Shown here: one piece after another, positions 6,507-35,713 of the stretch
Layout: the number at the start of each line of letters is the position of its first letter
Position numbering within the stretch: the stretch's first letter is position 1
Assembly (NCBI GenBank): GCA_017453405.1
Contig: JAFTKF010000148.1
Coordinates: forward strand, 1-37,085
Direction of reading: 5' to 3'
Length of the DNA: 37,085 nucleotides
Source of the DNA: Clostridia bacterium
GTDB taxonomy: Bacteria > Bacillota > Clostridia > Oscillospirales > CAG-272
Notes under the pieces: model-generated
What the model saw: the letters and a program-made list of their open reading frames with translations, nothing else
The model's database searches: none
What the model was told of the DNA's origin: nothing
Position numbers and translations under genes: made by a program

Positions 6507-7496
6507 TTACGCGAGGACGCCCAGGTAGCGGAGGAGGAAGGTGGCGAGAAAGACGGTGAAGGCGGAAACGATCGTGGTGAAAATGACGATCTGACCGGCG
6601 AGGGCAGTGTCGCTTTTCATTTCCTGCGCCATAGCAACACTGGATACGGCGACGGGTGTGGCAAAAACCGCAACGAGTGAGGCGAACTCCGCGCCGCCAA
6701 AGCTGTCGCGGAAGAAGGCATAGGCGATGCCAAGTCCTGCGGCGGGGACAACAATGCCGCGGATCACGGTTGCGAACAGGATCTCCTTTTTGTATTTCGA
6801 AACCGAGGAAAATTCAAACTGTGCGCCGAGCACGAGAAGCGCCATTGGCGTGGCAACACGCGAGAGGTATTCGAGAAGCGTATACAGCGGTGCGATGTCG
6901 GTTAGACGGAAGCGGATATCCGCAAGTACAAACAGCTTGCGCACAAGCAGTGTGACAAGTCCGACAAAAATGCTGATGATCAGGGGATTTCTGACAATAT
7001 CCAATACGATCTCCCGTACCGAGACCTTTTTGCCGTCCTTGTGAAAGAGGGACAGACTGATCACGCCGAGGATATTATACGTTGGCACGATCGCTGCCGA
7101 CAACAGCGAAGCCGCAATAGCGCCTTCTTCACCGAACAGCGCGGTCGCAAGCGGAATGCCGACCAGTGCGTAGTTGGAGCGGAATGTTCCCTGCAAAAGC
7201 GGACCGCGATGCTCGGCATCCTTGGTGATGAGCATCACGAGCAATGCGCCCACAAGAAAGATCACAGCGGTGAACACCGTGGCATACAGCACATAACCGA
7301 GATTCACAGCGGCAAGATTGCCGATTCCGTAGATATTCAAAAACAGCATCGCGGGCAAAAACACGCGAAAGACAAGCTTATTGGCAGCTTTGGCAAAGCT
7401 TTCGGAAATAAGACCGAGCTTTTTTAAGACGTATCCCAAGAGAACGGTAAGGATGATCGGCATCACGGCGTTAATAGCGAACAGTAAGGATTCCAT
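6507..7496 (-). CDS. AEC (auxin efflux carrier) family permease
   Basis: Start chosen at MESLLFAINAVMPIILTVLLGYVLKK (ATG at 7494-7496) after RBS AAGGAGGG. The protein is polytopic throughout. The longer ORF start at 7541 would lie inside the promoter. Confidence 0.85.
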   Translation of the reverse strand: MESLLFAINAVMPIILTVLLGYVLKKLGLISESFAKAANKLVFRVFLPAMLFLNIYGIGNLAAVNLGYVLYATVFTAVIFLVGALLVMLITKDAEHRGPLLQGTFRSNYALVGIPLATALFGEEGAIAASLLSAAIVPTYNILGVISLSLFHKDGKKVSVREIVLDIVRNPLIISIFVGLVTLLVRKLFVLADIRFRLTDIAPLYTLLEYLSRVATPMALLVLGAQFEFSSVSKYKKEILFATVIRGIVVPAAGLGIAYAFFRDSFGGAEFASLVAVFATPVAVSSVAMAQEMKSDTALAGQIVIFTTIVSAFTVFLATFLLRYLGVLA

Positions 7497-7529
7497 ATGC
7501 CCTCCTTTTTCAAAAGCTTTGATAGCAAA

Positions 7530-7558
7530 AGTATAGCACATCGGGTGCTGTTTGTCAA
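7530..7558 (-). promoter_or_regulatory. Consensus promoter TTGACA-17-TATACT for the AEC gene
   Basis: On the minus strand, ttgaca is the complement of 7553-7558 and tatact is the complement of 7530-7535. Confidence 0.7.
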
Positions 7559-7591
7559 GAATTCACGAAAAAGACTTGATTTGACAAACAG
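7548..7591. repeat. Perfect 11-bp inverted repeat ctgtttgtcaa / ttgacaaacag covering both divergent -35 boxes
   Basis: 7548-7558 is the reverse complement of 7581-7591, with 22 nt between them. Confidence 0.85.
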
Positions 7592-7609
7592 GAGAAAATA
7601 TGCTATACT
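7581..7609 (+). promoter_or_regulatory. Consensus promoter TTGACA-17-TATACT for the GH5 gene
   Basis: ttgaca at 7581-7586 and tatact at 7604-7609. Confidence 0.7.
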
Positions 7610-7638
7610 ATCCTATCAGATAAGGTGAGGTGATATGC

Positions 7639-8943
7639 GTGAAAAGGGCGTTTTTACAGTGTCTTATGATGCTGCTATTGGCAGCTGTTTTGGTATCCTG
7701 TGCGCAATCGGGCAACACGGACGAAACGGCACGGGATACGACAAAAGAAGCAATCGAAACGACAGTAACAGTGGAGGTAACGGTGGAAGATCGCATTTTA
7801 TACGTGGAAGACGGCAAGATCATCGACAAAAACGGGGACGAGGTGGTGCTTTGTGGCATCAATCTCGGCGGCTGGCTCTTGCAGGAAACTTGGATGTGTG
7901 CCGTTGTCGGCTCGGAATGCAACGAGGATTCCTTCAAGCTTTTGCAGGATCGCGGCTTTACCGATGACGAGATCGCGACGCTGTTTGCAAGCTACGCCGA
8001 TCACTACATCACCGAACGGGATATTAAAATCATTGCCGAGCTTGGCTTGAACTGTCTGCGCGTGCCCTTCTGGTATCGCAATTTTATGCGCGAGGATCTG
8101 ACCTACTACACAAGCGATCCCGACGAAAACCCGGGCTTTCGCTATCTTGACCGCGTGATTGCTTGGGCGGAGCACTATGGACTGTATGTCATTCTGGATA
8201 TGCACGGCGCGCCGGGTGGGCAGTCGACTGATCACTGCTGTGGCAGTATCGGCAAAAATGAACTGTACACAAGCGAGGACAATCTTGCCGCGATGGAAGA
8301 TCTGTGGGTGAAGCTTGCCACGCGTTACCGCGACAGCGTGACGGTTGCCGCCTATGATATTATGAATGAGCCGATGAACAACAGCACCGAGTTCGAAAAC
8401 GGTTGGGCGGCAGGCAGTGACGAGGCAATTGCCAAAACGCTTATGGTCTATCGCCGTATGATCCGCGCGATCCGCGCAATTGATCCCGAACATATCATCA
8501 CAATTGAGGGGATCTGGTCAATGACCTATCTGCCCGATCCTGCCAAAGAGGGCTGGACCAATATGATGTATCAGCTGCATCTTTACGACACGACCAAGGA
8601 AATGATCGATTACCGTATTGCCGAAATGGTCAAGGCGCGTGACGAATACGGGGTTGCCATCTATGTCGGCGAATACAATAATGGCGATGACAATCAGGTA
8701 TATGCGTATACGAAGTACCGCACCGAGAATATCTCCCGTACCGCGTGGACCTATAAGACCGCCAAGGGCAATCAGGGGAACTGGTCGCTGTATTATTCCT
8801 CCACCCCGCCCGCCGATCTCGCCAACGATTCCTATGACGAGATCCTCAGAAAGTGGGGCGACTGCCTTTTGACCGAATCCAATGGCTGGACACGCAACAC
8901 CACCCTGCGCGGCTGGCTGATGCGCTACAGCAAACCCACCTGA
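7639..8943 (+). CDS. GH5 family glycoside hydrolase (exo-beta-1,3-glucanase-like), lipoprotein
   Basis: I prefer the GTG at 7639 (MKRAFLQCLMMLLLAAVLVSCAQ, lipobox) because it sits 5 nt after GGTGAGGTGA. The track start at 7630 has no RBS spacing. GH5 motifs: LNCLRVPFWY, DMHGAPGGQS, YDIMNEP (acid/base Glu), YVGEYN (nucleophile Glu). Confidence 0.8.
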   Translation: MKRAFLQCLMMLLLAAVLVSCAQSGNTDETARDTTKEAIETTVTVEVTVEDRILYVEDGKIIDKNGDEVVLCGINLGGWLLQETWMCAVVGSECNEDSFKLLQDRGFTDDEIATLFASYADHYITERDIKIIAELGLNCLRVPFWYRNFMREDLTYYTSDPDENPGFRYLDRVIAWAEHYGLYVILDMHGAPGGQSTDHCCGSIGKNELYTSEDNLAAMEDLWVKLATRYRDSVTVAAYDIMNEPMNNSTEFENGWAAGSDEAIAKTLMVYRRMIRAIRAIDPEHIITIEGIWSMTYLPDPAKEGWTNMMYQLHLYDTTKEMIDYRIAEMVKARDEYGVAIYVGEYNNGDDNQVYAYTKYRTENISRTAWTYKTAKGNQGNWSLYYSSTPPADLANDSYDEILRKWGDCLLTESNGWTRNTTLRGWLMRYSKPT

Positions 8944-18261: not shown

Positions 18262-19071
18262 TCAGGAATTGGATTTTGGGGGAATCGTCTTGACAAAGAT
18301 TGCCATAGACAAAAGAAAGCCCGCATACAAAACGCCAAGCAGGATCAGCCCGACAAGGCTGTTTCTGACAAGAAAGGCGGCAAGGGCGATCTGCAGTGTG
18401 ACAAATACGATCAGGCAAAGCTTGACTTTTCTTGTCAGCCCACCTGCATCGAGATAGGGTTTCAGAAAACGCTGATACAAGCGGCTTTCTTTGAATTTCA
18501 GATAGAGCCGCTGAGAGCTTGACAAAAGGGCAACGGCGGTAAGGAGATAGAGGGGCACAGTGGGAAGAATGGGAAGAAAGATCCCCAATGTGCCCAGCGA
18601 GAACGCAACTGCCCCCACCGTCAGCCATATCACCTGACGTAAGGTCAGCCGAAAGCCGCGAACGAGAAAGCGAAGCCCCGAAAGAGACAGTGCCGAGCCA
18701 AGCCCCGTGTAGAAAAAGGCAAAGAAGAAATCAGGCAGAAGCTGAAAGCCCCTGAGAACAATACCCAGTGTCATCATAAACGCCATCAGCAGATAGCCCT
18801 TCACATCAAAGAAGCGAAAAACCGAGACCCGTTCGCCCTCGTAGCCAAGAATCCGCCGCTCGTTTTTTTGCACAATGCGGTAAAACATAAAAGAAAAGCC
18901 GACAAATATCAAAGCCGCAAGCGCAAGAATCCCCACATTGCGCCACAAGGCGTCGGGATTCCATAAAGATATAACAGCGAGAACGCCAATACGGGCAATA
19001 TTGACCCCCGCCGCAAGCCAGATGATCCCCGCAATGAAGAGGAGGACGCGTTTTTTAACCTTTACCATCAT
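18262..19071 (-). CDS. Polytopic membrane protein with a YbaN/DUF454-like C-terminal half
   Basis: 269 aa. The segment GIFLPILPTVPLYLLTAVALLSSSQRLYLKF is YbaN-like. The N-terminal half is unassigned. Confidence 0.6.
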   Translation of the reverse strand: MMVKVKKRVLLFIAGIIWLAAGVNIARIGVLAVISLWNPDALWRNVGILALAALIFVGFSFMFYRIVQKNERRILGYEGERVSVFRFFDVKGYLLMAFMMTLGIVLRGFQLLPDFFFAFFYTGLGSALSLSGLRFLVRGFRLTLRQVIWLTVGAVAFSLGTLGIFLPILPTVPLYLLTAVALLSSSQRLYLKFKESRLYQRFLKPYLDAGGLTRKVKLCLIVFVTLQIALAAFLVRNSLVGLILLGVLYAGFLLSMAIFVKTIPPKSNS

Positions 19072-19125
19072 ACATCCTTTGTTCGGTGAATTTCATTTGG
19101 TCACATCTCCATTGCATACGATTTA

Positions 19126-19154
19126 ATTATACACAATTCATTGGGTCTTGTCAA
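19126..19154 (-). promoter_or_regulatory. Consensus promoter TTGACA-17-TATAAT for the membrane-protein operon
   Basis: On the minus strand, ttgaca is the complement of 19149-19154 and tataat is the complement of 19126-19131. Confidence 0.7.
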
Positions 19155-19362
19155 GTCCTTTCTTCCCCGCCGCGCAAAAGCACCTCTCGCACAGGCAGGT
19201 TTTTCTGCTGTCGTTTTGCATACTTTCCGCAATTTGGCACGTTCCGCAAGCGAGATATTTCTTTCGTTCACTTTGCGATTTTGTGCCAATGCGGGGCTTC
19301 ACAAAACGGTGTCGTTTTTTATCGATATCGGTTGACTTTGTCACAAAAAAGAACAAAATCGC

Positions 19363-19391
19363 TTGAAATTGATGGGGGTTTGTGATATACT
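19363..19391 (+). promoter_or_regulatory. Promoter TTGAAA-17-TATACT
   Basis: ttgaaa at 19363-19368 and tatact at 19386-19391. The promoter lies inside the longest-ORF extension, so the real start codon must be downstream. Confidence 0.65.
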
Positions 19392-19473
19392 GATAAAAAC
19401 GTGTGATGACACCGATACACAACCGCCAAGGACGGCAGAGACATCCTGCCGCCAAAACAAACGGGAGATGTTT

Positions 19474-20697
19474 ATGAAAAACAGTGCTGATATGACCACG
19501 CTGTCACGGTATATGTACCGCACCGCGACAAGCAAAAAGCTGTCCTTGCAGAATGCCGTCAAGCTGCTGCAAAGCACCGCCTACGTGCGCACAACTAAGG
19601 ATATTCTGATGAAATTTTCCCGTCTTGACCCCGCAAAGGAGTCCGAGCTGCAGGCATATGTCTTGGATGCCTTGCTGAAGACATCGGATGCGATCGGTCG
19701 GGACAGTCTGCGCCGTAAGGTCAGCATCTGGATCAAGGAAGGCGGCGCGATCGGCAAGGATGCCGCCATTCAGCTTGCCTTTGCCTTCGGGCTTTCGCAC
19801 GATCAGGCAGATGAGCTTTTGAAATACACACGCTCCGAAGGCTTTCACTGGCGCGATCCCGAAGATATCGTGTTCAGCTATGCCCTTCTCAAAGGGCTGT
19901 CCTATCAAAAGGCGTGTGAGCTGAAGGACCGTATGGCGCAAGCAGGCTTGCTAAGCCCCGTGGACACGGGCGCGGAAGCCGCGGTGGCAAGAACCGAGCA
20001 GATCCGGCAAAAAGCAGAGAATCTTGACAGCGAAGAGGAATTGATCGCCTTTCTGACAGCCAACCAAAGCAGCTTGGGCACGCTTCATAACACGGCGTAT
20101 GGCTACTTCACACAATACCTGAAGCTCCTGCAAGAGCCTGAGCCGGACCATTCCTTTACCGATGCGTGGTTTTCGGAGCAAGACGGCAAAAAGCCCTCGG
20201 AGGAATACGACGCGTTCGGTCGGTTTGATACCTATTCCATCCGCGATGTGCTGATCGAATACCTTCACAGCGAGCGTATTCCGAAGGAATCACGCCCCCG
20301 AAAGGACAAGCAAACGAGTGAGCGATCAGCACTGATCCTTTCCGCGATGCAAAAGAGCATCCGCAACCACTGGCCGGACGAGATCGCCCTATCCAAAATG
20401 AAAAACCGTGCGACAGATGTCACACGAAAGGTTTTGATCCTCTTATTCATAGCAACCGACGGCTATGCCGTCACCGAATATGATGAGTTTGAAACCGATC
20501 TGTCCCGCGAGGAAGAATTTGAGGATATGTACGAGCGTATGAACAATATGCTGAACGAATGCGGCTTTGCGCCCCTTGATCCCCGCGCGCCCTTTGACTG
20601 GATGATGCTGTTCTGTATGTGCGCAGGCGCAAAGGATTTTATCGATCTCCGCATTGAACGCTTCTTACAGGCAATCTTCCCCGATACGCCCCAATAA
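19474..20697 (+). CDS. Hypothetical cytosolic protein (407 aa), no domain recognised
   Basis: Start at MKNSADM, 5 nt after GGGAGA. No TM helix or signal peptide. Acidic, helical-looking sequence (…FHWRDPEDIVFSYALLKGLSYQKACEL…, …LDPRAPFDWMMLFCM…). Confidence 0.6.
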   Translation: MKNSADMTTLSRYMYRTATSKKLSLQNAVKLLQSTAYVRTTKDILMKFSRLDPAKESELQAYVLDALLKTSDAIGRDSLRRKVSIWIKEGGAIGKDAAIQLAFAFGLSHDQADELLKYTRSEGFHWRDPEDIVFSYALLKGLSYQKACELKDRMAQAGLLSPVDTGAEAAVARTEQIRQKAENLDSEEELIAFLTANQSSLGTLHNTAYGYFTQYLKLLQEPEPDHSFTDAWFSEQDGKKPSEEYDAFGRFDTYSIRDVLIEYLHSERIPKESRPRKDKQTSERSALILSAMQKSIRNHWPDEIALSKMKNRATDVTRKVLILLFIATDGYAVTEYDEFETDLSREEEFEDMYERMNNMLNECGFAPLDPRAPFDWMMLFCMCAGAKDFIDLRIERFLQAIFPDTPQ

Positions 20698-20704
20698 CCC
20701 TTCC

Positions 20705-20729
20705 CCAAGCGGAAACGCTTTTTAAAACC
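20705..20729 (+). repeat. 25-bp perfect direct repeat, left copy (ccaagcggaaacgctttttaaaacc)
   Basis: Identical to 25114-25138, and the flanking bases differ on both sides. Contains the mini-hairpin aagcg-gaa-cgctt followed by T5. Confidence 0.95.
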
Positions 20730-20767
20730 GTCAGAGACAACGTGGTATCCTACAACCGCGACGATAA

Positions 20768-20808
20768 AACCGCTCTCCCGCACAAAGGCATCTGTCGGGA
20801 GAGCGGTT
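20768..20808 (+). promoter_or_regulatory. Strong leader hairpin 10 nt upstream of the kinase-NACHT RBS
   Basis: aaccgctctcccg (20768-20780) pairs with cgggagagcggtt (20796-20808) around a 15-nt loop. No clear U-tract follows. Confidence 0.5.
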
Positions 20809-20830
20809 GTGATACACAGGAGGTGTCATT

Positions 20831-23770
20831 ATGGATCTCAGAACCGCTTTGCCAAACGGCTCGCAGTTACAGTTTCCCTCAATGACGGTAACGCTGGAAT
20901 GCGAGGTCGGGCGTGGCTCTAATGCCATCGTATACCGAGGAACGTATCCCGATCTGCAAAGCCATACGCTTCATCATATTCTGATTAAAGAACTCTTTCC
21001 CCTTCATCCCGAGGCAAGGATCTACCGAACCGAGGATGGCTCGCTTTGCTATGCGGAGGCTGAGGACTTTTTTCGCTTTCACAAGCTGAGCTTTGAGAAA
21101 GGCAATACCGTCCATCTGAAGATCTTATCGCACAGTCCCGACGGCGCAGGCGGCAATGTCAATACCTTCTCTTATAACCGCACGCTGTATACGGTGCTGC
21201 AGTATAACGGCGGCAGAAGTCTTGCCGACGAGCTTGACGCCCATACCTTCACACTCGCGCAGGTCGTCAAAGCGATGAAAGGCATTTTGTACGCGCTGAG
21301 GGATTTCCACCAAAACGGCTTTCTTCATCTGGATATCGCGCCCGACAATATTATGCTTCTCGGCACAAATGAGCGCGAGCGCATTATGCTGATCGATTAT
21401 AACAGCGCCATGGAGCAGTCGGTATGGCAAACGCATTTCAGTATCAAGCAAGGCTATTCCGCCCCCGAGGTACAGCGCGGCGATGTCGCCGCCTTTACCC
21501 CTGCCACCGATCTCTATTCGGTTGCCGCCGTCTTTTTCAGATGCATCAGGGGATATGCGCTTCAGCCCTTTGAAGTCCACCGGAAAACGCCCCCTGCCGT
21601 TTCTCACTGCAAGATCCTGCAGGGCTTGCCCGAGACCTGCATCAGTATGGTCAAAGAGATCCTGTATCGCGGCTTATCCGCGATCGGGGCAAGGCGCTAC
21701 GCTACCGTAGACGAAATGCTCGTTGCCTTTGAGGAGCTTGACGACCGCATCCAAGGTGTCGGCATTACCCATTGGGCGCTTTGGGAGGCAGGCAAGCGAA
21801 CCGTGCAAAGCTTGATTCAAAGCAACACCGCTCTTCGGTATCTGCGCGACGGGGAATCGCTCTTCCCTATGTTCACGCAGTCCGAGACCGATGGGCGAAA
21901 ATCAATGGATGCTTCCATCCGTGCGCTCACAGACGGCGAAAGCCATCTGTTCGTGAGTGCGCCCGGCGGTATGGGCAAAACCACCTCGATGCTTTATGCG
22001 CTTTTGCAGAGCAGTAAGCGCTATTCTCCCCAATCGCCTGCCATCGTGTATCTGTCGTTACACGGCGCTTGCGCGGATTCTCATACCGTTACCGATAAAA
22101 TTCTTGAAAATCTTCACTTCAAAGCCAATGTTCAAAACTACCGTGAGGCGCGTCACGCACTGCACCAACTGCTGACAAAGCCCTTGGTGCACGACGGCGG
22201 TACACGCCCTTGTGTCGTACTGTTCCTTGACGGGCTGAACGAAGTCAGCGAAGGCGTTTCCTATCTTCTTGACGAGATCGCCTCGCTTGCAAGGCTTGAC
22301 GGCATCCGACTGTACATCACCTCGCGCACCGACTGCGCGCTTGAGGGCTTTCGTCACCTGCAGCTCTCACCTCTCACGCTTGGCGAGGTACAGACCGTCC
22401 TCACACGCCATCACTTGCTGATGCCCGATTCCCCCACGATGCAAGAGCTTTTGAGAACACCGATCATGCTTTCGATGTTTCTCGGGCTTTCCGAGCAAAA
22501 CGGCACACAGCCGCAGGCAAAAAGCGGCGAGGAGCTGGTGGAAGCCTATCTCGACTCTCTTGTTCAGAAAGAGCTTGCCACTCTGCCCGAGGACAGCTCC
22601 CTGCGCCTGAAGATCGAAGTCGCCGTACAGCTTGTGCTTCCGAGAATTGCCGCAAGGCTTCAGAAATCGGGACTGCCCTGCGACGATGCCGCGCTGTTCA
22701 AGGAAAGCGCCGCCGCGTATCGCCTGATCCGCTCGCCCCTTCTCATTAAAGCCTTTCCGCAGTGGATCGGACACAAACGCACGATCCTCGACGGGATCGA
22801 ATCCGCCGACGACTGGTATGATATCCTTGTACGGAAATTACTGTGGCAACGGCTCGGACTGCTGATCAAAAACGAGCAAGGGCAATATGTGCTCGCGCAT
22901 CAGATCATCACCGACCATCTCGCGGCGGGGCATACCGCCATAAAAAAAAGGATTGTTCGCTATCAGGCGATCAAGCACAGCCTGATCGCTGTCATTTGCC
23001 TTGTGCTTGCGGGAGCGATCGCCCTCGCCTGTGTGAAGAGCGCTCCCGACCCCGCCATTCCCTATCAGGAATCTTACGCCATAACGGTATTGACCGACGC
23101 ATTGAACGCCTATCAGGTGTCAAGCCTGCAGTACAGCGCGATCCGCAAGCTGACCGATGCCCTTGCCGAAACGCCCGAGGCGTATGCCGCATCCCTTGCG
23201 GAATATGAGCATTCGTCAAAGTTTATCAGCGCCAACCTGCCCTCCGGCGCCTATCAGAGCCGAGTCGAGCTGCTTCTTGCAAGCGGCGAGGTGTTTGAAT
23301 GGACACAGCAGGAGCTGCAAACCGAAGAATATCTCCAATTATTCACCCTGATCGAAGAACGAGAGGTGCAATATGCCGATATCGTAGGCGCGTTTTCGTA
23401 TATGATGCACGATGATACCGTCTTTTCAAAATACGGCGAGGCGTATACAAAAACGGTGTCGGACCTCATCGAGCTTGATGCCGAGATCACCGCTACCCTG
23501 TATGCCATCGCCTGCCGCGCCCATTTGTACGCGGCAATGGATGCCTTTTCGCAAAGCGGCGACGAGGTCAAAGCAATGCACGTCAACAGCTGGACTGCCG
23601 TTTTAAGCGCAACCCATCCGATCAACGACCGTGTTCCCACCGAGGAAAGCCCCATTGCCTTACGCGACCGCTTGCAGAACCTTATGGGAAAACGAAAGGA
23701 TCAATACCTTAATTTACAAAGCCAAGGGGCTTATATTCTCTATCAAAATCAAAAGGAGACACCATCATGA
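20831..23770 (+). CDS. Protein kinase / NACHT (STAND) NTPase / TM helix / extracytoplasmic C-terminal domain protein
   Basis: RBS AGGAGG. Kinase motifs: VGRGSNAIVY, ILIKE, HLDIAPDN, DYN, SAPE. NACHT motifs: SAPGGMGKTT, VVLFLDGLNE, YITSR, LLRTPIMLSMF. TM helix SLIAVICLVLAGAIALACV at aa 717-735 (nt 22979-23035). Confidence 0.85.
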   Translation: MDLRTALPNGSQLQFPSMTVTLECEVGRGSNAIVYRGTYPDLQSHTLHHILIKELFPLHPEARIYRTEDGSLCYAEAEDFFRFHKLSFEKGNTVHLKILSHSPDGAGGNVNTFSYNRTLYTVLQYNGGRSLADELDAHTFTLAQVVKAMKGILYALRDFHQNGFLHLDIAPDNIMLLGTNERERIMLIDYNSAMEQSVWQTHFSIKQGYSAPEVQRGDVAAFTPATDLYSVAAVFFRCIRGYALQPFEVHRKTPPAVSHCKILQGLPETCISMVKEILYRGLSAIGARRYATVDEMLVAFEELDDRIQGVGITHWALWEAGKRTVQSLIQSNTALRYLRDGESLFPMFTQSETDGRKSMDASIRALTDGESHLFVSAPGGMGKTTSMLYALLQSSKRYSPQSPAIVYLSLHGACADSHTVTDKILENLHFKANVQNYREARHALHQLLTKPLVHDGGTRPCVVLFLDGLNEVSEGVSYLLDEIASLARLDGIRLYITSRTDCALEGFRHLQLSPLTLGEVQTVLTRHHLLMPDSPTMQELLRTPIMLSMFLGLSEQNGTQPQAKSGEELVEAYLDSLVQKELATLPEDSSLRLKIEVAVQLVLPRIAARLQKSGLPCDDAALFKESAAAYRLIRSPLLIKAFPQWIGHKRTILDGIESADDWYDILVRKLLWQRLGLLIKNEQGQYVLAHQIITDHLAAGHTAIKKRIVRYQAIKHSLIAVICLVLAGAIALACVKSAPDPAIPYQESYAITVLTDALNAYQVSSLQYSAIRKLTDALAETPEAYAASLAEYEHSSKFISANLPSGAYQSRVELLLASGEVFEWTQQELQTEEYLQLFTLIEEREVQYADIVGAFSYMMHDDTVFSKYGEAYTKTVSDLIELDAEITATLYAIACRAHLYAAMDAFSQSGDEVKAMHVNSWTAVLSATHPINDRVPTEESPIALRDRLQNLMGKRKDQYLNLQSQGAYILYQNQKETPS

Positions 23771-25011
23771 AGCACCGTTTTCTCGTCCTCTGCGTGCTTT
23801 TGCTTCTTTTCGCTGTGACGCTCTCCCTCGTCGCTTGCAACGATACCCCTGCGACAAGCACGCCCACCACAAGCGCGTCCTCCGTAAGCACACCCGAAAC
23901 CACCGAAGCACCCCCTTCGACAGATGCCGTCGATGAAGCCTTCCGACGCACGTTTGCCGCAGACTGGTCTAAGTATCTGGTTCACAAGGAAAGCCTGTGC
24001 CTTGATATGTCCTGGATGCTTTCGTATGTGGAAGCCTTTTATGAACAGCCAAGCCTTTCCACACTGACCAACGCAAGAGCCGCCCTCGGTTCTCTGGAAG
24101 CACATTGGGCAGAGCTCAGCTTTCCCACCTACACGCTCACGCCCGAACAGCACACCGAGCTTATCGCGGCAGGCTATGATGTGAGCGGCATATGGGAGGA
24201 AATGAATCGCTGGGAGAGCAGTATGACAGAATTTCTTGACACCTGCCAGATCCTTTTTTCCGACCTTTACTTCAACGCCTTCTTCACGCCCTCCTTTCAG
24301 GGCTGTCAAAAATATACCCAAAATGCCATCACAGGTGTGGAGATCACGCTGGAGCAATTGGCGGTATTTACCGACAACGTGATCCTTTCTCTGAAAAGCG
24401 AGACCATCAGAGACGACTTTTTGGCATTCATTCAGGAGAACACGCCTGCCGTGGCAAAGTATTTGCCCGCATTCTCCCAAACGCTTTCGGCAAATGCCGA
24501 ACGTCAGGAGGCGGTGCTCGATAAGCTGGAAGCCAATATCAACGAGCTGAACACGATCGTGGGTGAGCTTACGGTCGCGGCAGATCAGCTTGCCGATCTC
24601 TTCGCCACCAATAATATCGAACAGCTCACCGCATCGCTCGTCGATCTCGGGGACGGTTTTTGTTTCCCGCTTCCCTTCTTTGATTACAGCAAGGACACCT
24701 TCTTCTATTTCTATTCGGACGGTGACACTCAGGATATCTTCGCCCCCCAAGCACCCATCACCCTGACACCGAACCGTTTGGTGATCGAATCGGCGGTTTC
24801 CAAAGAAGACCATACAGAGTATCTTGAAATCTTACTCTTGCTCGGCTTCACCCCCGTCCTCACCGACGACAGCGATACAGCCCTCCTCTCTTACTACAAG
24901 CTTGACGACGACAACAGCGTCCTGATTGAGTGGGAAGATCAGGTGATGACCTTCATCATTGTCGGCGCGGATATTTATCCTCTCCCGCAGTACTGCTTCT
25001 ACGCTTCCTGA
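23767..25011 (+). CDS. Lipoprotein of unknown function, translationally coupled to the kinase-NACHT gene
   Basis: ATGA overlap at 23767-23770, with RBS AAGGAGA. MKHRFLVLCVLLLLFAVTLSLVAC carries a lipobox, followed by a Thr/Ser/Pro linker, then a helical region and a beta-rich tail. Confidence 0.75.
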   Translation: MKHRFLVLCVLLLLFAVTLSLVACNDTPATSTPTTSASSVSTPETTEAPPSTDAVDEAFRRTFAADWSKYLVHKESLCLDMSWMLSYVEAFYEQPSLSTLTNARAALGSLEAHWAELSFPTYTLTPEQHTELIAAGYDVSGIWEEMNRWESSMTEFLDTCQILFSDLYFNAFFTPSFQGCQKYTQNAITGVEITLEQLAVFTDNVILSLKSETIRDDFLAFIQENTPAVAKYLPAFSQTLSANAERQEAVLDKLEANINELNTIVGELTVAADQLADLFATNNIEQLTASLVDLGDGFCFPLPFFDYSKDTFFYFYSDGDTQDIFAPQAPITLTPNRLVIESAVSKEDHTEYLEILLLLGFTPVLTDDSDTALLSYYKLDDDNSVLIEWEDQVMTFIIVGADIYPLPQYCFYAS

Positions 25012-25041
25012 CGCGCCCCATCACAAGAACTGCATAAAAAC

Positions 25042-25083
25042 GGTTGCACACGCCCCCAACGGGACTGTGCAACCCTTTTTTTA
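25042..25083 (+). terminator. Rho-independent terminator
   Basis: ggttgcaca (25042-25050) pairs with tgtgcaacc (25066-25074), followed by cttttttt. Confidence 0.75.
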
Positions 25084-25113
25084 TTGTGTTCTCCCCTCTC
25101 TCCGCCGGTTTTT

Positions 25114-25138
25114 CCAAGCGGAAACGCTTTTTAAAACC
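25114..25138 (+). repeat. 25-bp perfect direct repeat, right copy
   Basis: Identical to 20705-20729. Confidence 0.95.
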
Positions 25139-25160
25139 TGCAAGCTCGCTGTGCTACAAT
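25131..25160 (+). promoter_or_regulatory. Extended -10 promoter (TGCTACAAT) with a weak -35
   Basis: tacaat at 25155-25160 with TG at 25152-25153. The candidate -35, ttaaaa (25131-25136), lies inside the 25-bp repeat. Confidence 0.45.
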
Positions 25161-25279
25161 GAAGTCACCAAAGCAAAAGAAACAAACGTACCGGAAACAC
25201 CTTTTAAAAAAGCAAAAAGACTTGTGCTAAACTACAGTCACAAACACAAAAGACCACAAATCAAAAAGGAGAAATACAA

Positions 25280-25702
25280 ATGAAAACGAGAACGATCGTA
25301 TGCAGCACCACTTCGGAACAGGAGATCATAAACGCCGCCAGAACCTACTTCCTCGAAGAAGGCTTTGACATTCAGGATGTCATCACCGAAAACGGCGAGA
25401 TCGGCATTCAGGCTCGCAAGAGCAGCTGGATCCGCAAATGCTCGGGCACATCCTACGCCCTGCAGGTCATTGTCAGCCATCCGTCCGAAAACCGCTATGT
25501 CGTCACCGCAGGCTGGGGCGAATGGTTTCTGAAAAGCACCGTAGCCACCTTTGCAACCTTTATCGCCCTGTGGTGGATGATCATTCCGTCCGTCGTCGGT
25601 ATGGTCAATCAGGCAAAGCTGCCGAACGCGTGCCTTGACCGTATGAGCGCAACCGTCGCAGAGCAAAATCCGCAGTGCCGGATCTACATTGACGCAAAAT
25701 AA
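25280..25702 (+). CDS. Small membrane protein, paralog A (soluble N-domain, TM segment, Cys-containing tail)
   Basis: RBS AAGGAGA. Shares TENGE..QARK.SW.R...G.SYA, AGWG.W, IP..VG..NQ..LP..CLD and P.CRIY with the 25931-26347 product. Confidence 0.7.
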   Translation: MKTRTIVCSTTSEQEIINAARTYFLEEGFDIQDVITENGEIGIQARKSSWIRKCSGTSYALQVIVSHPSENRYVVTAGWGEWFLKSTVATFATFIALWWMIIPSVVGMVNQAKLPNACLDRMSATVAEQNPQCRIYIDAK

Positions 25703-25764
25703 CAAAAACTCGCGATCCCTTCACCAATCACCAACCGTATACCGATAACAAAGGAGTATTGACT

Positions 25765-25902
25765 ATGACACAGATCTATAAGAATATCGCAAGACTGATC
25801 CCCCGCGCAACCGCAGGAGACCCGACCGCACTGGCTCTACTTGCCGCCTTGGGCGTTTGCGCCTTGGGCAAGTACATTTACGACACTGTCAAAGACAGCT
25901 AA
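25765..25902 (+). CDS. 45-aa micro-ORF, predicted single-pass membrane peptide
   Basis: Below the ORF-track cutoff. RBS AAGGAG lies 8 nt upstream of the ATG. MTQIYKNIARLIPRATAGDPTALALLAALGVCALGKYIYDTVKDS. It sits between the two paralogs. Confidence 0.4.
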   Translation: MTQIYKNIARLIPRATAGDPTALALLAALGVCALGKYIYDTVKDS

Positions 25903-25930
25903 CCCGATCAAAAGAAAAAGGAGACTACCG

Positions 25931-26347
25931 ATGAAAAAAATAATTGTCAAATGCAACACCACCGAGGAAGAGATCCTGCAAAGCGCCACCGCCTATTATG
26001 AAAGCCTCGGCTACGAAACCCAGCAGTGTGTGACCGAAAACGGCGAGACTTGTATGCAAGCCCGAAAAACAAGCTGGGTCCGCAACGCCACAGGCATGTC
26101 CTATGCCATTCGCCTGGTCGTTCGCCGCACCAAGGACAACAGCTACGAGCTGAGCGCGGGATGGGGCAAGTGGGCGGATAAGGTCATCGTGGGAGGCATC
26201 GCCGTGTTCATCGCCTTCGGCGTTCTTGTGATCCCCACCTGCGTCGGCATCATCAATCAGATCAGACTGCCCAAGCAATGCCTCGACTATGTTTCCCAAG
26301 CATTGAAGCTTGCGCATCCCGAATGCAGAATCTATCAGGTGGTATAA
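25931..26347 (+). CDS. Small membrane protein, paralog B
   Basis: Start at MKKIIVKCNTTEEEIL after RBS AAGGAGA. The track's upstream extension overlaps the micro-ORF. Confidence 0.7.
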   Translation: MKKIIVKCNTTEEEILQSATAYYESLGYETQQCVTENGETCMQARKTSWVRNATGMSYAIRLVVRRTKDNSYELSAGWGKWADKVIVGGIAVFIAFGVLVIPTCVGIINQIRLPKQCLDYVSQALKLAHPECRIYQVV

Positions 26348-26373
26348 ATTCACCCCACCCGACAGCACAGCGT

Positions 26374-26406
26374 AACACCCCGACAAGACGGTCTTGTCGG
26401 GGTGTT
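26374..26406 (+). terminator. Terminator-like hairpin
   Basis: caccccgacaag pairs with cttgtcggggtg. The U-tract is weak. Confidence 0.55.
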
Positions 26407-26443
26407 GCCGTATCCGTGATACGTTCTCCACAGAAGCCTGCTC

Positions 26444-26472
26444 TTGCTTTTCGGGGAATCTTGTGATAGAAT
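26444..26472 (+). promoter_or_regulatory. Promoter TTGCTT-17-TAGAAT
   Basis: ttgctt at 26444-26449 and tagaat at 26467-26472. This excludes the track start at 26444. Confidence 0.55.
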
Positions 26473-26512
26473 AAAGAAAACTCCGACGACCCAATCAAAA
26501 GGAGAGGCAACT

Positions 26513-29239
26513 ATGAACGATCAGAAAACCCTAACCGATACGACCCCAAGAGCCACAGGACTTTCTGCCTATGCGCTACGGGTAAACGGACTGCACGCAC
26601 CGATGGGAATCGACAGCGAGATCCGTTTTTCCTGGCTTCTGCGCGGCGAAGGCTATCATCGATCGCAAAGCGCCTATCGCATTCTGGTTTCCTCTTCTCT
26701 AAAAAAGGCAGAATGTCTGTGCGGCGACCTTTGGGATTCCGGAAAAACCGAAGATGACAGCAATTACGATATTGCCTATCGCGGCAAGCCCCTGACATCC
26801 CGCAGCCGTTATTACTTCCGCGTTGCCGTTTGGGATGAAAACGGCAGGGCGGGAGACTTTGGCGAGATCGGCGTGTTTGAAACCGGTATCCTGCATCCGA
26901 GCGAATGGCAGGGCATCTGGATCACCGCGCCCCGTGAGGGGGATGGGACGGAATCAGCCCCGATGTTCAGAAAAACCTTTTTGCTAAGAAGCACGCTTGC
27001 GTCTGCCCGCCTTTATCTTTCGGGCTTGGGGCTGTATGAAGTCAAAATCAACGGCGCTTTTGCAGATGATACCGTTTTGAATCCCGCCCATACGCAATAC
27101 GAGGACACCGTTCACTATCGGGTATTCGATCTCAGTACCCTTCTGACAAGCGGGAGCAATGTCCTGACCGTAGAGCTTGGTGACGGTTTTTATCACAACG
27201 ATGTGGGTGTATGGAATTGGCAAAACGCCGTTTGGCGGGATCGTCCGAAGCTTCGCGCGATGCTGTATCTGACTTACGCGGACGGTACGGAGGATACCAT
27301 CGTCACCGATGAAAGCTGGCGGGTGAAGACCGACGGTCCGATCCTTTCAAACAATATTCTTTTGGGCGACCGTTATGATGCAAGACGGGAGGAGGGCGGT
27401 TGGCTGAATGCCGATTTTGACGACAGCCATTGGGCGTTTGCCACCGCCGCCGCAGAGCCGCAAGGCAAGCTTGTTTTCGGAGAAATGGAGCCTATGCGCC
27501 GCCTGCAAAGCTTTGTGCCCGAGGTGAGTCGCCTGAGTGACGGCACGTATCTGATCAAAGCCCCCGTGATGACGACCGGCTGGGTGAAGCTTTGCCTCGA
27601 CGCCCCCGAAGGCGAAACGATCACGGTCACCTACGGCGAACAGCTGCAAAAGGACGGCTATCTGAAAAAGCCAACCGATTTCGGTATTGCCTTTCAGATC
27701 GATCACTATACCGCCAAGGGTGTCAAGGGAGAATGCTATGAGCCGAAGTTCAGTTATAAAGGCTATCGCTATGTGCAGGTAGAAAACTACAGCGGCAGTC
27801 TTACGCCCGAGGATGTCACCTGTTATTTCATTGCCAACGATGTGGCATCAAGTGCCACGCTTGAAACGGGAAACGCGCTGATCAACCGCCTGCACTTAGC
27901 AATGCGCCGCACCGTGCATAACAATCTGCAGGGCAAGCCCACCGATACCCCCGTATGGGAGAAGAACGGTTGGACGGGGGATTTTCACGTATCCTTGGAA
28001 TCCATCTGCTTCAACTACGCCATCTTGCCCTTCACCCTCAAATTCCTGAAGGATCTGGAGGATGCCGCCGATGAAAGGGGCGTTGTCCCCGTGATCGCGC
28101 CCACGGCAAACTGGGGGCTGGGTAATCAGGTGGTATGGAACGGCGTTCTGATCAATGCGGTATATGAGATGCTATGCTTTTACGGCTCTCGCAGTACGGT
28201 GGAACGCTTCTGGCAAGCGATGACAAGGCAGGTGGCGGCATATCTTTGTGAGCTTGAAAAACGGGATCTGATCTGGCAAAACGATCAGCTTGCCGACTGG
28301 GTAGCGCCCTTTGGCGGTATGGACCCCGATGCCCCCACTGCCGCCTGCCCCTCGGAAGGCTCTTCGATCTGCGGAACGGGTTATGTCTATCTGATCCTTT
28401 CGCGAATGGCGGAAATGGCAAGCCTTTTGGATAAGCAGGAAGAAGCGGCATTTTACAAAAAAAGCGCCGAGAGACTTTACACCGCCTTCCATAACGCCTT
28501 CTATAACGCCGAAAAGGGCATATACGAAAGTGCCTTCTGGGACGGTTCTTCCTCCCGTAGCCGATACCGTCAGACATCAAACCTAGTCCCCCTTGCCTTC
28601 GGGCTCTGCCCCGAGGAGCACCGCGGTCGCGTGATCGAAAATCTGGTGCGTGATATTGCCGCCAAAAACAATCACCTTGACACCGGTATGGTGGGAACGA
28701 AGCTGTTACTCCCGATCCTCAGCGAGGCAGGACATCACGAGCTTGCCGTAGACATCCTCACCAACACCACCTATCCCTCTTGGGGCTACTGGATCGAGCA
28801 GGGCTCGGATACCACGTGGGAGGGCTTTGAAAACACCGCGCGCTCGCACAATCACTATTTTCTCGGTACATACGACGAATGGCTGTTCCGCTATCTTGCG
28901 GGCGTTCACGATATGACCGATGGCTTCAAGACCGTAACACTCTTTCCGAGAATCACACCGCGCGTGGGTTATGTCCGTTGTCACTTACAAACGGTGCGAG
29001 GCGAGCTTGTCAGCGACTGGGAGCTGCAAAAAGACAGCTCTCTTCTGATAAGACTTCGCATACCGATCGGAACAACCGCAAGGGTGATCCTTCCCTGCCG
29101 GGATGCTTCCTTTCTGAAAACACAAGGCGCTCTTTTCTCCCCCGATGCATACGCTTTTGAAAACAACCGCCTTGCCCTGACGCTGGAGAGCGGCAACTAC
29201 CGTTTTCTTATTACCCCCGAGGGTGTCGTCACGGGCTGA
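26513..29239 (+). CDS. GH78 alpha-L-rhamnosidase
   Basis: Start at MNDQKTL after RBS AAAGGAGAG. LRVNGLHAPMGIDSEIRFSWLL is a typical N-terminus for this family. Also GKPTDTPVWEKNGWTGD and an (alpha/alpha)6 catalytic region. Confidence 0.85.
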   Translation: MNDQKTLTDTTPRATGLSAYALRVNGLHAPMGIDSEIRFSWLLRGEGYHRSQSAYRILVSSSLKKAECLCGDLWDSGKTEDDSNYDIAYRGKPLTSRSRYYFRVAVWDENGRAGDFGEIGVFETGILHPSEWQGIWITAPREGDGTESAPMFRKTFLLRSTLASARLYLSGLGLYEVKINGAFADDTVLNPAHTQYEDTVHYRVFDLSTLLTSGSNVLTVELGDGFYHNDVGVWNWQNAVWRDRPKLRAMLYLTYADGTEDTIVTDESWRVKTDGPILSNNILLGDRYDARREEGGWLNADFDDSHWAFATAAAEPQGKLVFGEMEPMRRLQSFVPEVSRLSDGTYLIKAPVMTTGWVKLCLDAPEGETITVTYGEQLQKDGYLKKPTDFGIAFQIDHYTAKGVKGECYEPKFSYKGYRYVQVENYSGSLTPEDVTCYFIANDVASSATLETGNALINRLHLAMRRTVHNNLQGKPTDTPVWEKNGWTGDFHVSLESICFNYAILPFTLKFLKDLEDAADERGVVPVIAPTANWGLGNQVVWNGVLINAVYEMLCFYGSRSTVERFWQAMTRQVAAYLCELEKRDLIWQNDQLADWVAPFGGMDPDAPTAACPSEGSSICGTGYVYLILSRMAEMASLLDKQEEAAFYKKSAERLYTAFHNAFYNAEKGIYESAFWDGSSSRSRYRQTSNLVPLAFGLCPEEHRGRVIENLVRDIAAKNNHLDTGMVGTKLLLPILSEAGHHELAVDILTNTTYPSWGYWIEQGSDTTWEGFENTARSHNHYFLGTYDEWLFRYLAGVHDMTDGFKTVTLFPRITPRVGYVRCHLQTVRGELVSDWELQKDSSLLIRLRIPIGTTARVILPCRDASFLKTQGALFSPDAYAFENNRLALTLESGNYRFLITPEGVVTG

Positions 29240-34717: not shown

Positions 34718-35653
34718 TCACTCGATCAGCCCGTCTGTGCAGACAACGGTGTACTGCGGCATACCAAGATCCCATTGCGAAGATTTGTCGATCTTCTCCC
34801 ATTCCGCGCAGGTGCCGCGGTAGGTGATACGGGTAAGCTTTTCACAACCGGCAAAAACACCCCTGCCCAGACTGACCACACTTGCGGGAACGGTGACCTG
34901 CACAAGATTGCGGCATCCGTGGAAGGCGCTGTAGCCAATGACCGTCACGCGATCGGGAACGGTGATCTCTGCTAAGGCAACACAGTCGCGAAAGGTGTTG
35001 CACCCGATATCCGAAAGATTCTCGGGAAGGGTGATCAAGGAAAGGCTGCGGCATCCCCGAAATGCACCGTAGCCGATCAGGCAGACGCTTGCGGGAATCT
35101 CAAGCTCAGAAAGCTGCGTGCAATCCTGAAACGTGCCACTGCCAATATCGGTGATGTGCACGGGGAGAGAAATACGCGAAAGCGCGGTACAGCCCTTGAA
35201 AGCACCAATGCCAATGCGGCGGACACTGTCGGGAATCGTGACCGCCTCCAGGTGCACAGCCCTCGCAAATGCCTCTTTTTCGATGGACTTCACTTCACTC
35301 GGAATGACAACCGATGCCGATGAGCCGATGTACTTCACCAGCGCGTCTTTTTGGATTTCAAAATTCTGATCGTTTGACACAGTACGTTCCCCCTTTTTGG
35401 AATAGACAATTCTTTTAATGGATTCAACAGAAAGAAAGTATTCTTCGGAAAGCGCAAAAACCGAACTGCCGTTTTGGAATTTGGTCTTGATCTCCCGATT
35501 TCGCTTCTCGATCTGCCGTTTATATCCCGATGCTTCTCCCCAGGATCGCCGCGTTTCCTTTGCCGGAATATAGACCGATCTGCCCGACACATATTTCTGT
35601 ATCTGCTTCAGAAGCTTTTCGGGAAAAATATCCTTTCCGTTCGGATGCTTCAT
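34718..35653 (-). CDS. Mor/CD3324-like HTH domain fused to BspA-type leucine-rich repeats (LRR_5)
   Basis: Start at MKHPNGKDIF after RBS AAAGGAGCGGAGG. N-terminal segment: FPEKLLKQIQKYVSGRSVYIPAKETRRSWGEASGYKRQIEKRNREIKTKFQNGSSVFALSEEYFLSVESIKRIVY. About 8 repeats follow, of the form IP.SV..IG..AF..C..L. No signal peptide. Confidence 0.7.
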   Translation of the reverse strand: MKHPNGKDIFPEKLLKQIQKYVSGRSVYIPAKETRRSWGEASGYKRQIEKRNREIKTKFQNGSSVFALSEEYFLSVESIKRIVYSKKGERTVSNDQNFEIQKDALVKYIGSSASVVIPSEVKSIEKEAFARAVHLEAVTIPDSVRRIGIGAFKGCTALSRISLPVHITDIGSGTFQDCTQLSELEIPASVCLIGYGAFRGCRSLSLITLPENLSDIGCNTFRDCVALAEITVPDRVTVIGYSAFHGCRNLVQVTVPASVVSLGRGVFAGCEKLTRITYRGTCAEWEKIDKSSQWDLGMPQYTVVCTDGLIE

Positions 35654-35684
35654 ACCTCCGCTCCTTTCTTCCTTTTGTAAGTCC

Positions 35685-35713
35685 ATTATACCACGGCTGT
35701 CAAAAGAAATCTA
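35685..35713 (-). promoter_or_regulatory. Extended -10 promoter (TGGTATAAT) with a weak -35 (TAGATT)
   Basis: On the minus strand, tataat is the complement of 35685-35690, followed by a 17-nt spacer and tagatt as the complement of 35708-35713. Confidence 0.4.

Follow-up and report, generated by a model that had tools for sequence, protein, structure and literature searches.

A putative kinase and NACHT-like gene cassette of gut Clostridia and the promoter-like module it shares with small membrane-protein genes

What kind of system is encoded at positions 19363-26406 of contig JAFTKF010000148.1 from a Clostridia bacterium, where six genes of no obvious function follow one another? The contig comes from a metagenome-assembled genome (MAG), and its full 37,085 bp are referred to here as the window. 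A sequence-only reading of the window had proposed that the locus is a single 7-kb block in which a cytosolic protein, a membrane kinase, a lipoprotein and small membrane proteins could work together. Judging from relatives in other genomes, we conclude that three of the genes, A, B and C, make up a conserved, self-contained cassette of gut Clostridia. The remaining three, D, a 45-aa micro-open reading frame (micro-ORF) and E, form a separable optional unit, apparently tied to the cassette by a shared and otherwise rare promoter-like module. We give about even odds (0.5) to the reading in which a cue from outside triggers the kinase cassette and its outputs, co-regulated with it, act on the envelope. 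All credible ORFs in the locus, six in number, lie on the + strand, as had been claimed. The features are as follows, TM standing for transmembrane.

19363..19391, + strand: sigma-A-type promoter-like site upstream of A (TTGAAA-17-TATACT, TG before the -10, 10/12 match)
19474..20697, + strand: gene A, 407 aa, acidic, predicted all-helical and cytosolic, unannotated family
20707..20758, + strand: module copy 1, in the A-B spacer (CGGAAACGCTTTTTAAAACC-N13-TGGTATCCT; nhmmer E 5.8e-9)
20768..20808, + strand: hairpin with a 13-bp stem and no U tract, in the predicted 5' untranslated region of B, 3' of the module -10 (z -6.06)
20831..23770, + strand: gene B, 979 aa, kinase, NACHT-like STAND NTPase, TM segment and ectodomain (from Pfam and a structural model)
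23767..25011, + strand: gene C, 414-aa acidic putative lipoprotein (lipobox LVAC), ATGA overlap with B
25036..25086, + strand: canonical intrinsic terminator after C (GC-rich stem, then U7; z -4.63)
25116..25171, + strand: module copy 2, upstream of D (CGGAAACGCTTTTTAAAACC-N13-TGCTACAAT-GAAGTCAC; nhmmer E 3.3e-12)
25189..25244, + strand: module copy 3, degenerate, in tandem with copy 2 (period 73 nt; nhmmer E 3.8e-7)
25280..25702, + strand: gene D, 140 aa, N-terminal soluble domain and one TM segment, unannotated family
25765..25902, + strand: 45-aa basic hydrophobic micro-ORF (motif GDPTAL..LAA.GVCALG)
25931..26347, + strand: gene E, 138-aa paralog of D (43% identity)
26374..26406, no strand assigned: perfect 16-bp palindromic hairpin (AACACCCCGACAAGAC/GTCTTGTCGGGGTGTT; z -4.56) between E and a gene for a glycoside hydrolase of family 78 (GH78)

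A recurrent three-gene cassette

Relatives of B were collected by a pattern scan over 185,579 species genomes, one genome per species, which yielded 208 stretches confirmed by tblastn. From these, 80 loci were kept (given L numbers below), belonging to Oscillospiraceae, Lachnospiraceae, Christensenellaceae, Acutalibacteraceae and Blautia; the carriers in culture are Dorea acetigenes (Sanger_03), Clostridium sp. AM58-1XD and Clostridium sp. chh4-2. By tblastn, a homolog of A was present in 66 of the 80 kinase loci, nearly always directly upstream of B and on the same strand, and at most of the A-negative loci the upstream sequence was not present to inspect. A homolog of C was found directly downstream of B in 39 loci. 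Unsupervised clustering of the ORFs in the same 80 loci recovered the kinase family in 68 of them, that of A in 64 and that of C in 50, with every other family limited to nine or fewer. The reverse test agreed, in that three of three independently picked A homologs were followed by a 975-992-aa kinase and then by a 393-458-aa protein. Since A, B and C are the recurrent families among these loci, and their neighbours shift, we read the three as a conserved cassette in variable surroundings. The sequence-only reading had named co-occurrence across genomes as a check on the whole block; A, B and C co-occur, and D-like genes only rarely lie beside them.

The arrangement of B and C is close. In the window, the stop codon of B overlaps the start codon of C by 4 nt (ATGA), and this overlap occurs in 15 of 48 loci; by virtue of it, C is predicted to be translationally coupled to B. 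Several B paralogs may be found in one MAG (three in UBA3386, two each in RUG375 and RUG12263), and L070 carries two in tandem.

Sister contigs from other samples have the same gene order as the window. In the window, the cassette is preceded by DUF454, DUF4491, SGNH hydrolase and HATPase_c_4/winged-helix-turn-helix genes and followed, after E, by GH78 rhamnosidases, and none of these flanking genes is kept beside the cassette in other loci. A look-up of the DUF454 gene for a cassette-free "empty site" in a sister strain returned nothing on record. Across the loci, the 136 immediate neighbours are mostly metabolic or housekeeping genes, with a handful of defence matches; the idea that the cassette lies regularly inside defence islands was rejected on this heterogeneity. 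A phage-borne cassette was likewise rejected, since no relative was found in a search of viral contigs.

Two kinds of neighbour deserve mention in their own right. In Lachnospiraceae, a 107-aa gene for an XRE-type helix-turn-helix (HTH) protein recurs beside the cassette (L017, L020-L022, L024, L025, L047, L075, L078, L131-L133), usually directly 3' of C and, in L020 and L022, upstream of A. It is divergently paired with a gene of ~101-125 aa (family c7), and the pair is absent from the window. In two diverged lineages, a like gene cluster lies downstream of the cassette (L081 9744-12416 and L136 12819-15122), encoding an S-adenosylmethionine-dependent methyltransferase, an ADP-ribosyl glycohydrolase/PARG-like protein and an RNA ligase, with an HD/AAA_33 kinase-like gene in L081 as well. 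This cluster resembles an RNA-repair (Pnkp/Hen1-like) or ADP-ribosylation-reversal set.

Predicted kinase, switch and sensor

The Pfam Pkinase model (PF00069) matches B with 61.3 bits against a cut-off of 31.7, and it matches 17 of 17 relatives. Every item of the Hanks checklist is present in B, namely the Gly-rich loop, the VAIK Lys, HxD...N, the DFG Asp, APE and the Arg of subdomain XI. Among 73 full-length sequences, G27xG29, V34, K53, H166-L167-D168, N173, D189 (in DYN), P212-E213, D227 and R289 are all invariant, except P212 (at least 90%). By these residues, B is a Hanks-type Ser/Thr kinase with an intact active site.

An AlphaFold2 (AF2) model of B, with a mean predicted local distance difference test score (pLDDT) of 91, divides the protein into the kinase (1-310), an alpha/beta NTPase (~345-515), a region of helices (517-674) ending in a beta-hairpin or winged helix (the hairpin at 678-688, the whole region at ~516-690), one TM helix (~700-735) and an all-helical ectodomain (747-976). 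Nearly all full-length members of the family have one TM segment, at ~710-830 and mostly near 715-750. Foldseek with full-length B returned PpkA, PknI and PknB first (E ~1e-10 to 3e-9, template-modelling score (TM-score) on the target 0.74-0.78), with PknG (TM-score 0.63) and Stk1 lower down, a list filled by kinases and thus uninformative on the NACHT and ectodomain parts. The PADLOC matches of B (PD-T4-6, mad6, MkoA) cover only kinase residues ~110-305.

For the NTPase, the Walker A motif GGMGKTT (379-385) is invariant except for M381 (at least 90%). In the Walker B motif, D467-G468-L469-N470-E471, the D, G, N and E are invariant and L469 reaches at least 90%. The published NACHT signature at this site is D[GAS]hDE (Kibby et al., bioRxiv 10.1101/2022.07.19.500537), so that DGLNE comes close to it but has Asn where the signature has the first of its two acidic residues. 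A Pfam scan of the window's B gave no NACHT (PF05729) match, only sub-threshold NPHP3_N and AAA_22; the same NACHT model matches 8 of 17 relatives (best E 1.5e-8), and three of the five long B paralogs that were scanned exceed its cut-off of 26.7 bits. The protein had been called a kinase-NACHT-TM protein, and the kinase, a P-loop NTPase and one TM segment are borne out. The domain is better termed a NACHT-like STAND NTPase, the name "NACHT" being valid for the family only.

The earlier assignment of C as a lipoprotein is upheld by a signal peptide and lipobox: its N-terminus, MKHRFLVLCVLLLLFAVTLSLVAC, has a hydrophobic core at 5-23 and the lipobox LVAC with Cys24, and Cys is the majority residue at this position among 41 homologs. 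In five loci (L018, L030, L038, L049, L057), the B ORF is 1299-1374 aa long, which is longer by about one C length, and still has at most one TM segment. A C-like match lies inside the B ORF, as a single polypeptide, in L030 and L038, whereas L057 has a long B ORF yet a separate C gene downstream. Such B::C fusion in some genomes argues for a physical interaction of B with C, by the Rosetta stone principle. A second kind of variation is seen in B paralogs of 1640-1880 aa (L050, L051, L061, L063, L070, L077), which keep the kinase-NACHT-TM order and, where the helical ectodomain would otherwise follow the TM segment, carry PQQ/WD40 beta-propellers. Where these have enough upstream flank (L061, L063, L077), no A is found upstream; in L050 and L051, A is located after B.

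Sequence identity to the window falls along the same axis. The median is 51% for the kinase, 39% for the NTPase and 40% for A (range for NTPase, helical region and A, 39-42%), and it drops to 22-28% for the ectodomain and 18.5% for C. By these figures, the outside part is the fastest-evolving part of the cassette. Together, the long B ORFs with C inside, the propeller swaps and the identity gradient place the variable end, the one that would face a ligand, on the outer side of the cell and make C the partner of this end, and we infer that the B ectodomain and C form the sensor side of the system, in the extracytoplasmic space. Profile searches of C and of the B ectodomain against PDB sequences found no relatives. 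The possibility that C is a paralog of the B ectodomain was rejected, as there is no homology between the two.

The remaining partner, A, had been described as an acidic cytosolic protein of 407 aa, and its isoelectric point (pI) of 5.2 and lack of any TM or hydrophobic segment agree with this. Its family is large and without annotation. A word-indexed search gave 225 matches, none with a Pfam domain or a name, and an exhaustive profile search gave 1486 cluster representatives at E<=1e-3, of which 855 are at E<=1e-10. Nearly all homologs are stand-alone proteins of 360-450 aa, and a domain scan of the longer members revealed no known extra domain. Conserved motifs are GEGFHWRDPED, LGxLHNTAY, NWPDE, DVTRKVLILLF and CGFAPLDPRxPFDWM. 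The AF2 model is all-helical (pLDDT 81, predicted TM-score 0.78), and the invariant T174, which opens a helix behind a linker modelled with low confidence, is a candidate for phosphorylation. When A, C, D and E were scanned with Pfam, NCBIfam and PADLOC, nothing rose above noise, nor did a profile search of A against PDB sequences give any match. An internal duplication in A was considered and rejected: the RDPEDIV and RxPFDWM segments align, but only with E 0.33. At present, A is best described as a kinase partner of new fold or diverged beyond recognition.

The promoter-like module and the small membrane-protein genes

A 25-bp repeat occurs in exact form at 20705-20729 and 25114-25138, as the sequence-only reading had noted. 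The mini-terminator that this reading placed inside the repeat was rejected, since its AGCG/CGCT palindrome is weak (-5.8 kcal/mol, z -1.0) and is not conserved in relatives. The repeat is instead the upstream half of a ~55-nt element with the core CGGAAAC..TTTTCAAAAC..TGnTAnAAT and the full form CGGAAAC-N2-4-TTT(T/A)CAAAAC-N13-14-TGnTAnAAT-G(A/G)AGTCAC, which ends in an extended -10. For example, module copy 2 reads as a promoter TTAAAA-18-TACAAT with TG. Of the three copies in the window, one stands between A and B, and the other two precede D in tandem. In relatives, nearly every D-family gene examined is preceded by 2-5 tandem copies with a period of 79-80 nt, and in this unusual arrangement the number of copies might set the level of expression.

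With an nhmmer model of the module, 49 matches (E<1) were found in the window and the 80 loci. Seventeen of them, in 17 different loci, lie within 200 nt upstream of B; this zone makes up 0.6% of the search space, so that ~0.3 matches would be expected. Most of the others precede D-like genes, c4 (a ~186-aa Gly-rich membrane protein), c63 (a 183-aa protein), the micro-ORF and genes for a trypsin-like (HtrA-like) protease and an SH3_3 protein. Downstream of C in distant loci such as L029, L043, L050 and L055, c4, c63 and the micro-ORF recur with their modules. A regular-expression scan of a metagenome collection gave 30 single motif matches, none adjoining A, B, C or D. This number is the chance expectation for 18 fixed bases, and the motif is therefore intrinsically rare.

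The other signals in the locus suggest how it may be transcribed. The promoter at 19363 that had been proposed is well formed (TTGAAA-17-TATACT with an upstream TG), and so is the terminator at 25042-25083, with a U7 tail and z -4.6. These sites imply that A would be transcribed from the sigma-A-like promoter, B-C from the module, with possible read-through from A, as far as the 25036-25086 terminator, and D, the micro-ORF and E from the two tandem modules to an end near the palindrome at 26374-26406. The latter had been called terminator-like; it is a perfect 16-bp palindrome but lacks a U tract on either strand, and it may be the end of the D-E transcript, an RNA-stability element or a protein-binding site. 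The hairpin at 20768-20808 is strong (z -6), but as a leader hairpin it is not kept in five other module-carrying loci (L002, L031, L055, L089, L072). It is specific to the window genome, and a conserved attenuator was rejected on this ground. No RNA family was detected by an Rfam scan of 18500-27000. The proposal of graded read-through at hairpins thus finds no support, because the repeat is promoter-like, B-C and D-E have promoters of their own, and a canonical terminator stands between them.

D and E, which had been called paralogous, are 43% identical (E 7e-45), and each has one TM segment near residue 90-109. Close relatives of D are few, a word-indexed search giving only 19. In the clade nearest to the window (kinase 54-58% identical), the genes are found as A-B-C-D, as D-E-A-B-C, and with an inverted C<B<A< beside D>. 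Downstream of D genes that stand without a cassette come small ORFs, of 62-68 aa and of 48-51 aa. The 48-aa ORF after the D-family gene of L085 is homologous to the 45-aa ORF of the window (49% identity, E 3e-6), and the 51-aa ORF of L091 shares its motif as judged by eye. A further homolog in L029 follows tandem modules downstream of the cassette, and in sister contigs (L127-L130) the micro-ORF has a gene call. These homologs elsewhere indicate that the micro-ORF, whose status as a gene the sequence-only reading had asserted, is real. What does not hold is the single 7-kb block: there are two units instead, and the one comprising D, the micro-ORF and E is optional, accompanying few of the kinase loci (5/80) and occurring also without the cassette.

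Tandem modules lie directly upstream of small membrane-protein genes at L085 9463-9900, L091 1705-1860 and 3428-3660, L029 7661-7887 and window 25116-25244. A weak module match (E 0.18) is present at 35699-35673 of the window, just upstream of a gene on the - strand (34718-35686) for a 322-aa protein with a Mor transcription-activator-like N-terminus and BspA-type leucine-rich repeats. In L071, a 596-aa protein (6970-8760) ends in a D/E-like domain, TM segment included, that is fused to an Hsp70/actin-like ATPase and a zinc ribbon; two other ORFs separate its gene from an A-B pair ~1.3 kb upstream. The orientation of the cassette relative to D also varies, three contigs having it one way and one the other. 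Positions 1-6507 of L081 and of L082 are exact reverse complements of each other, with the D side collinear and a kinase 58% identical to B of the window. The cassette is bracketed there by ~227-bp inverted repeats, 91% identical, that consist of promoter modules and the first ~57 nt of two divergent D paralogs. The two long contigs break off precisely at the outer repeat, and the inversion may therefore be an assembler artefact.

A possible mechanism and its rivals

On the reading to which we give even odds, the B ectodomain and C would jointly read an extracytoplasmic cue, for which phage, a competitor and envelope stress are candidates. The cue would cause nucleotide-dependent switching or oligomerisation of the NACHT module, and the N-terminal kinase would be activated by proximity. 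The linked cytosolic A would be the partner of the kinase, its substrate or its output, and the module-driven small membrane proteins would be the response, acting on the envelope. The module is common to B and to the small envelope genes (D/E, c4, c63, the HtrA-like protease, the SH3 protein), and the small membrane-protein genes are therefore likely to be co-regulated outputs. A kinase plus small-membrane-protein system, as the sequence-only reading had it, is supported to this extent by the shared rare module and by D/E adjoining the cassette in several arrangements, but not as one unit, and the effector or immunity roles that this reading suggested for the small proteins are conjectural. 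A is the sole invariant candidate for a reader of the module.

Several observations weigh against this reading. With a hidden Markov model of the D/E family, only 5 of the 80 kinase loci adjoin a D-like gene, and in one of these the match is the C-terminal domain of the Hsp70-like/zinc-ribbon protein. D genes with the same modules are found on 12-16-kb contigs that have no cassette (L085-L087, L091-L096), so the module is not exclusive to the cassette, and it could simply be a strong promoter, typical of the lineage, that small envelope genes use. As for A, no DNA-binding, sigma or enzymatic domain was detectable with Pfam in 34 members, Foldseek of its model against PDB and BFVD gave nothing below E 0.28, an hhalign comparison with an XRE alignment reached a probability of 0.5%, and the protein is acidic throughout the family (median pI 4.9). 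Of 58 loci with A, 21 have module matches, as against 0 of 7 without it, which is a trend only (Fisher p = 0.086).

The alternative that survives best overlaps with our model, and we regard it as possible, if on the unlikely side. A-B-C could be an anti-phage or conflict system of the NLR (nucleotide-binding leucine-rich repeat)/STAND kind, of abortive-infection type, in which infection, for example through perturbation of the envelope at adsorption or injection, would trigger the kinase to phosphorylate proteins of the host or of the phage, and the small membrane proteins would act as effectors that damage the membrane. The layout of an N-terminal effector, a NACHT domain and a variable C-terminal sensor is that of bacterial NACHT defence proteins; the sensor parts diversify fast, the distribution is patchy (208 stretches in 185,579 species genomes) and MAGs may hold multiple paralogs. 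There are also defence contexts, with a restriction-modification system and Hachiman HamA/helicase in L136, AbiE beside D modules and, in the window, a TIR protein 14 kb upstream of the cassette (4940-5947, + strand, 335 aa, C-terminal TIR_2 with E 2.5e-14, N-terminal half without assignment). Set against this, the sensor is predicted to be extracytoplasmic and paired with a lipoprotein, unlike the characterised cytosolic sensors of bacterial NACHT (bNACHT) and Avs proteins. The PADLOC matches come through the generic kinase domain, with none for A, C, D or E, and the neighbours are heterogeneous with few defence matches. The lack of relatives on viral contigs lends defence no support either.

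It is doubtful that A is itself a phospho-regulated transcription factor, or a highly divergent sigma-like factor, that recognises the module directly. Besides B and C, A is the sole gene always present, the module is located right after A and before B, and module matches are confined to A-carrying loci. A precedent for kinase-to-sigma wiring exists in the pairs of Hanks kinases and sigma factors PknT-EcfP and PknS-EcfK (PMC13147305). The Foldseek matches of A include XRE-HTH proteins of BFVD (E 5-8, best TM-score 0.62 over 81 columns), DdrO and CI repressors and, among the top PDB matches, sigma-A chains (E 1.5-9, TM-score ~0.1), all of them weak, local and non-significant. The null results for structure and profile given above, the acidity of the protein and the Fisher test count against such a regulator. 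The specific versions of it gain no support, A as an XRE-HTH protein because of the hhalign result and the lack of a Pfam HTH in 34 members, and A as a sigma-70 factor for want of a region 2 or region 4 match in Pfam and of any significant structural match.

A bolder form of our own model, improbable in our judgement, is that B is a transmembrane NLR-like receptor kinase whose NACHT oligomerisation switch would be driven from outside by the helical ectodomain, with the lipoprotein as co-receptor. The kinase would phosphorylate A, as a dedicated protein of new fold, and A would switch on a private promoter module, with autoregulation of the receptor and a shuffling set of small membrane-active proteins. 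If true, this would be a bacterial counterpart of the surface receptor-NLR pairing of plants and animals, and a third wiring logic beside two-component and extracytoplasmic function (ECF)-sigma systems.

The least probable alternative is a chance juxtaposition of A-B-C, having some unrelated output, with an independent small-membrane-protein or bacteriocin/immunity-like unit, for which the tandem-promoter D genes without a nearby cassette, the few kinase loci with a D-like gene and the canonical terminator between C and D could be cited, against the same rare module before B in 17 loci of diverged lineages, the retention of D/E as neighbours of the cassette in the nearest clade despite three rearrangements and the recurrence of module-driven c4, c63 and micro-ORF 3' of C in distant lineages.

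To our knowledge, bacterial NACHT/STAND proteins have so far been understood as cytosolic sensors of phage proteins. Like bNACHT proteins, B has an effector at its N-terminus, a P-loop switch of NACHT type in the middle and a variable sensor that evolves fast at its C-terminus, and its relatives match Pfam NACHT. It differs in the Walker B motif (DGLNE, not D[GAS]hDE) and in a sensor placed outside the cell past a TM helix, with a co-translated lipoprotein and an obligatory upstream A; as said, PADLOC models match only its kinase domain. With PrkC, PknB and Stk1, the PASTA kinases, B shares a cytoplasmic Hanks kinase, a single TM segment and an extracellular sensor, and PpkA, PknI, PknB and Stk1 are its nearest structural matches. 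Unlike those kinases, it has a ~400-aa NACHT/STAND module between kinase and membrane and a helical-bundle ectodomain in place of PASTA domains, and it is patchy, accessory and multi-paralog. The PknT-EcfP and PknS-EcfK pairs resemble the cassette as an analogy of wiring only, in joining a membrane Ser/Thr kinase to a cytosolic, helical, acidic protein with a promoter motif at the targets, whereas A has no detectable sigma-70 region 2/4 or significant match to a sigma structure. Envelope-stress two-component systems with a sensor kinase and a lipoprotein are similar in their extracytoplasmic sensor and same-operon lipoprotein, which in the cassette are fused in some genomes; the cassette differs in having a Ser/Thr kinase with a STAND switch, and neither histidine kinase nor response regulator.

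Kibby et al. (bioRxiv 10.1101/2022.07.19.500537) list Pkinase and TM segments among the parts joined to NACHT modules in bacteria. In the literature searched, we found no A-B-C cassette, lipoprotein partner, extracellular placement of the sensor, A family or promoter module. New here are thus the cassette, the lipoprotein partner, the outside sensor, the A family and the module, while kinase/TM-NACHT fusions were known in general terms. In this cassette, a NACHT switch would be linked to the cell exterior and to a Ser/Thr kinase, and locked to two partner families without assignment. If the wiring is right, three to six "hypothetical" families common in human and ruminant gut Clostridia would gain a concrete and testable role. 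There would also be a handle on how gut anaerobes sense envelope or external threats, and Clostridia that are hard to manipulate would have a compact, inducible promoter module at hand.

Elsewhere in the window, a 184-aa ORF that is ECF-type sigma-like by eye (2133-2687, + strand) overlaps by 4 nt the gene at 2684-4108 (+ strand), which encodes a 474-aa protein that seems to be anchored in the membrane by its N-terminus and has a complete serpin domain (E 1e-60). This pair resembles a sigma factor with its anti-sigma partner, the ectodomain of the latter being a protease inhibitor.

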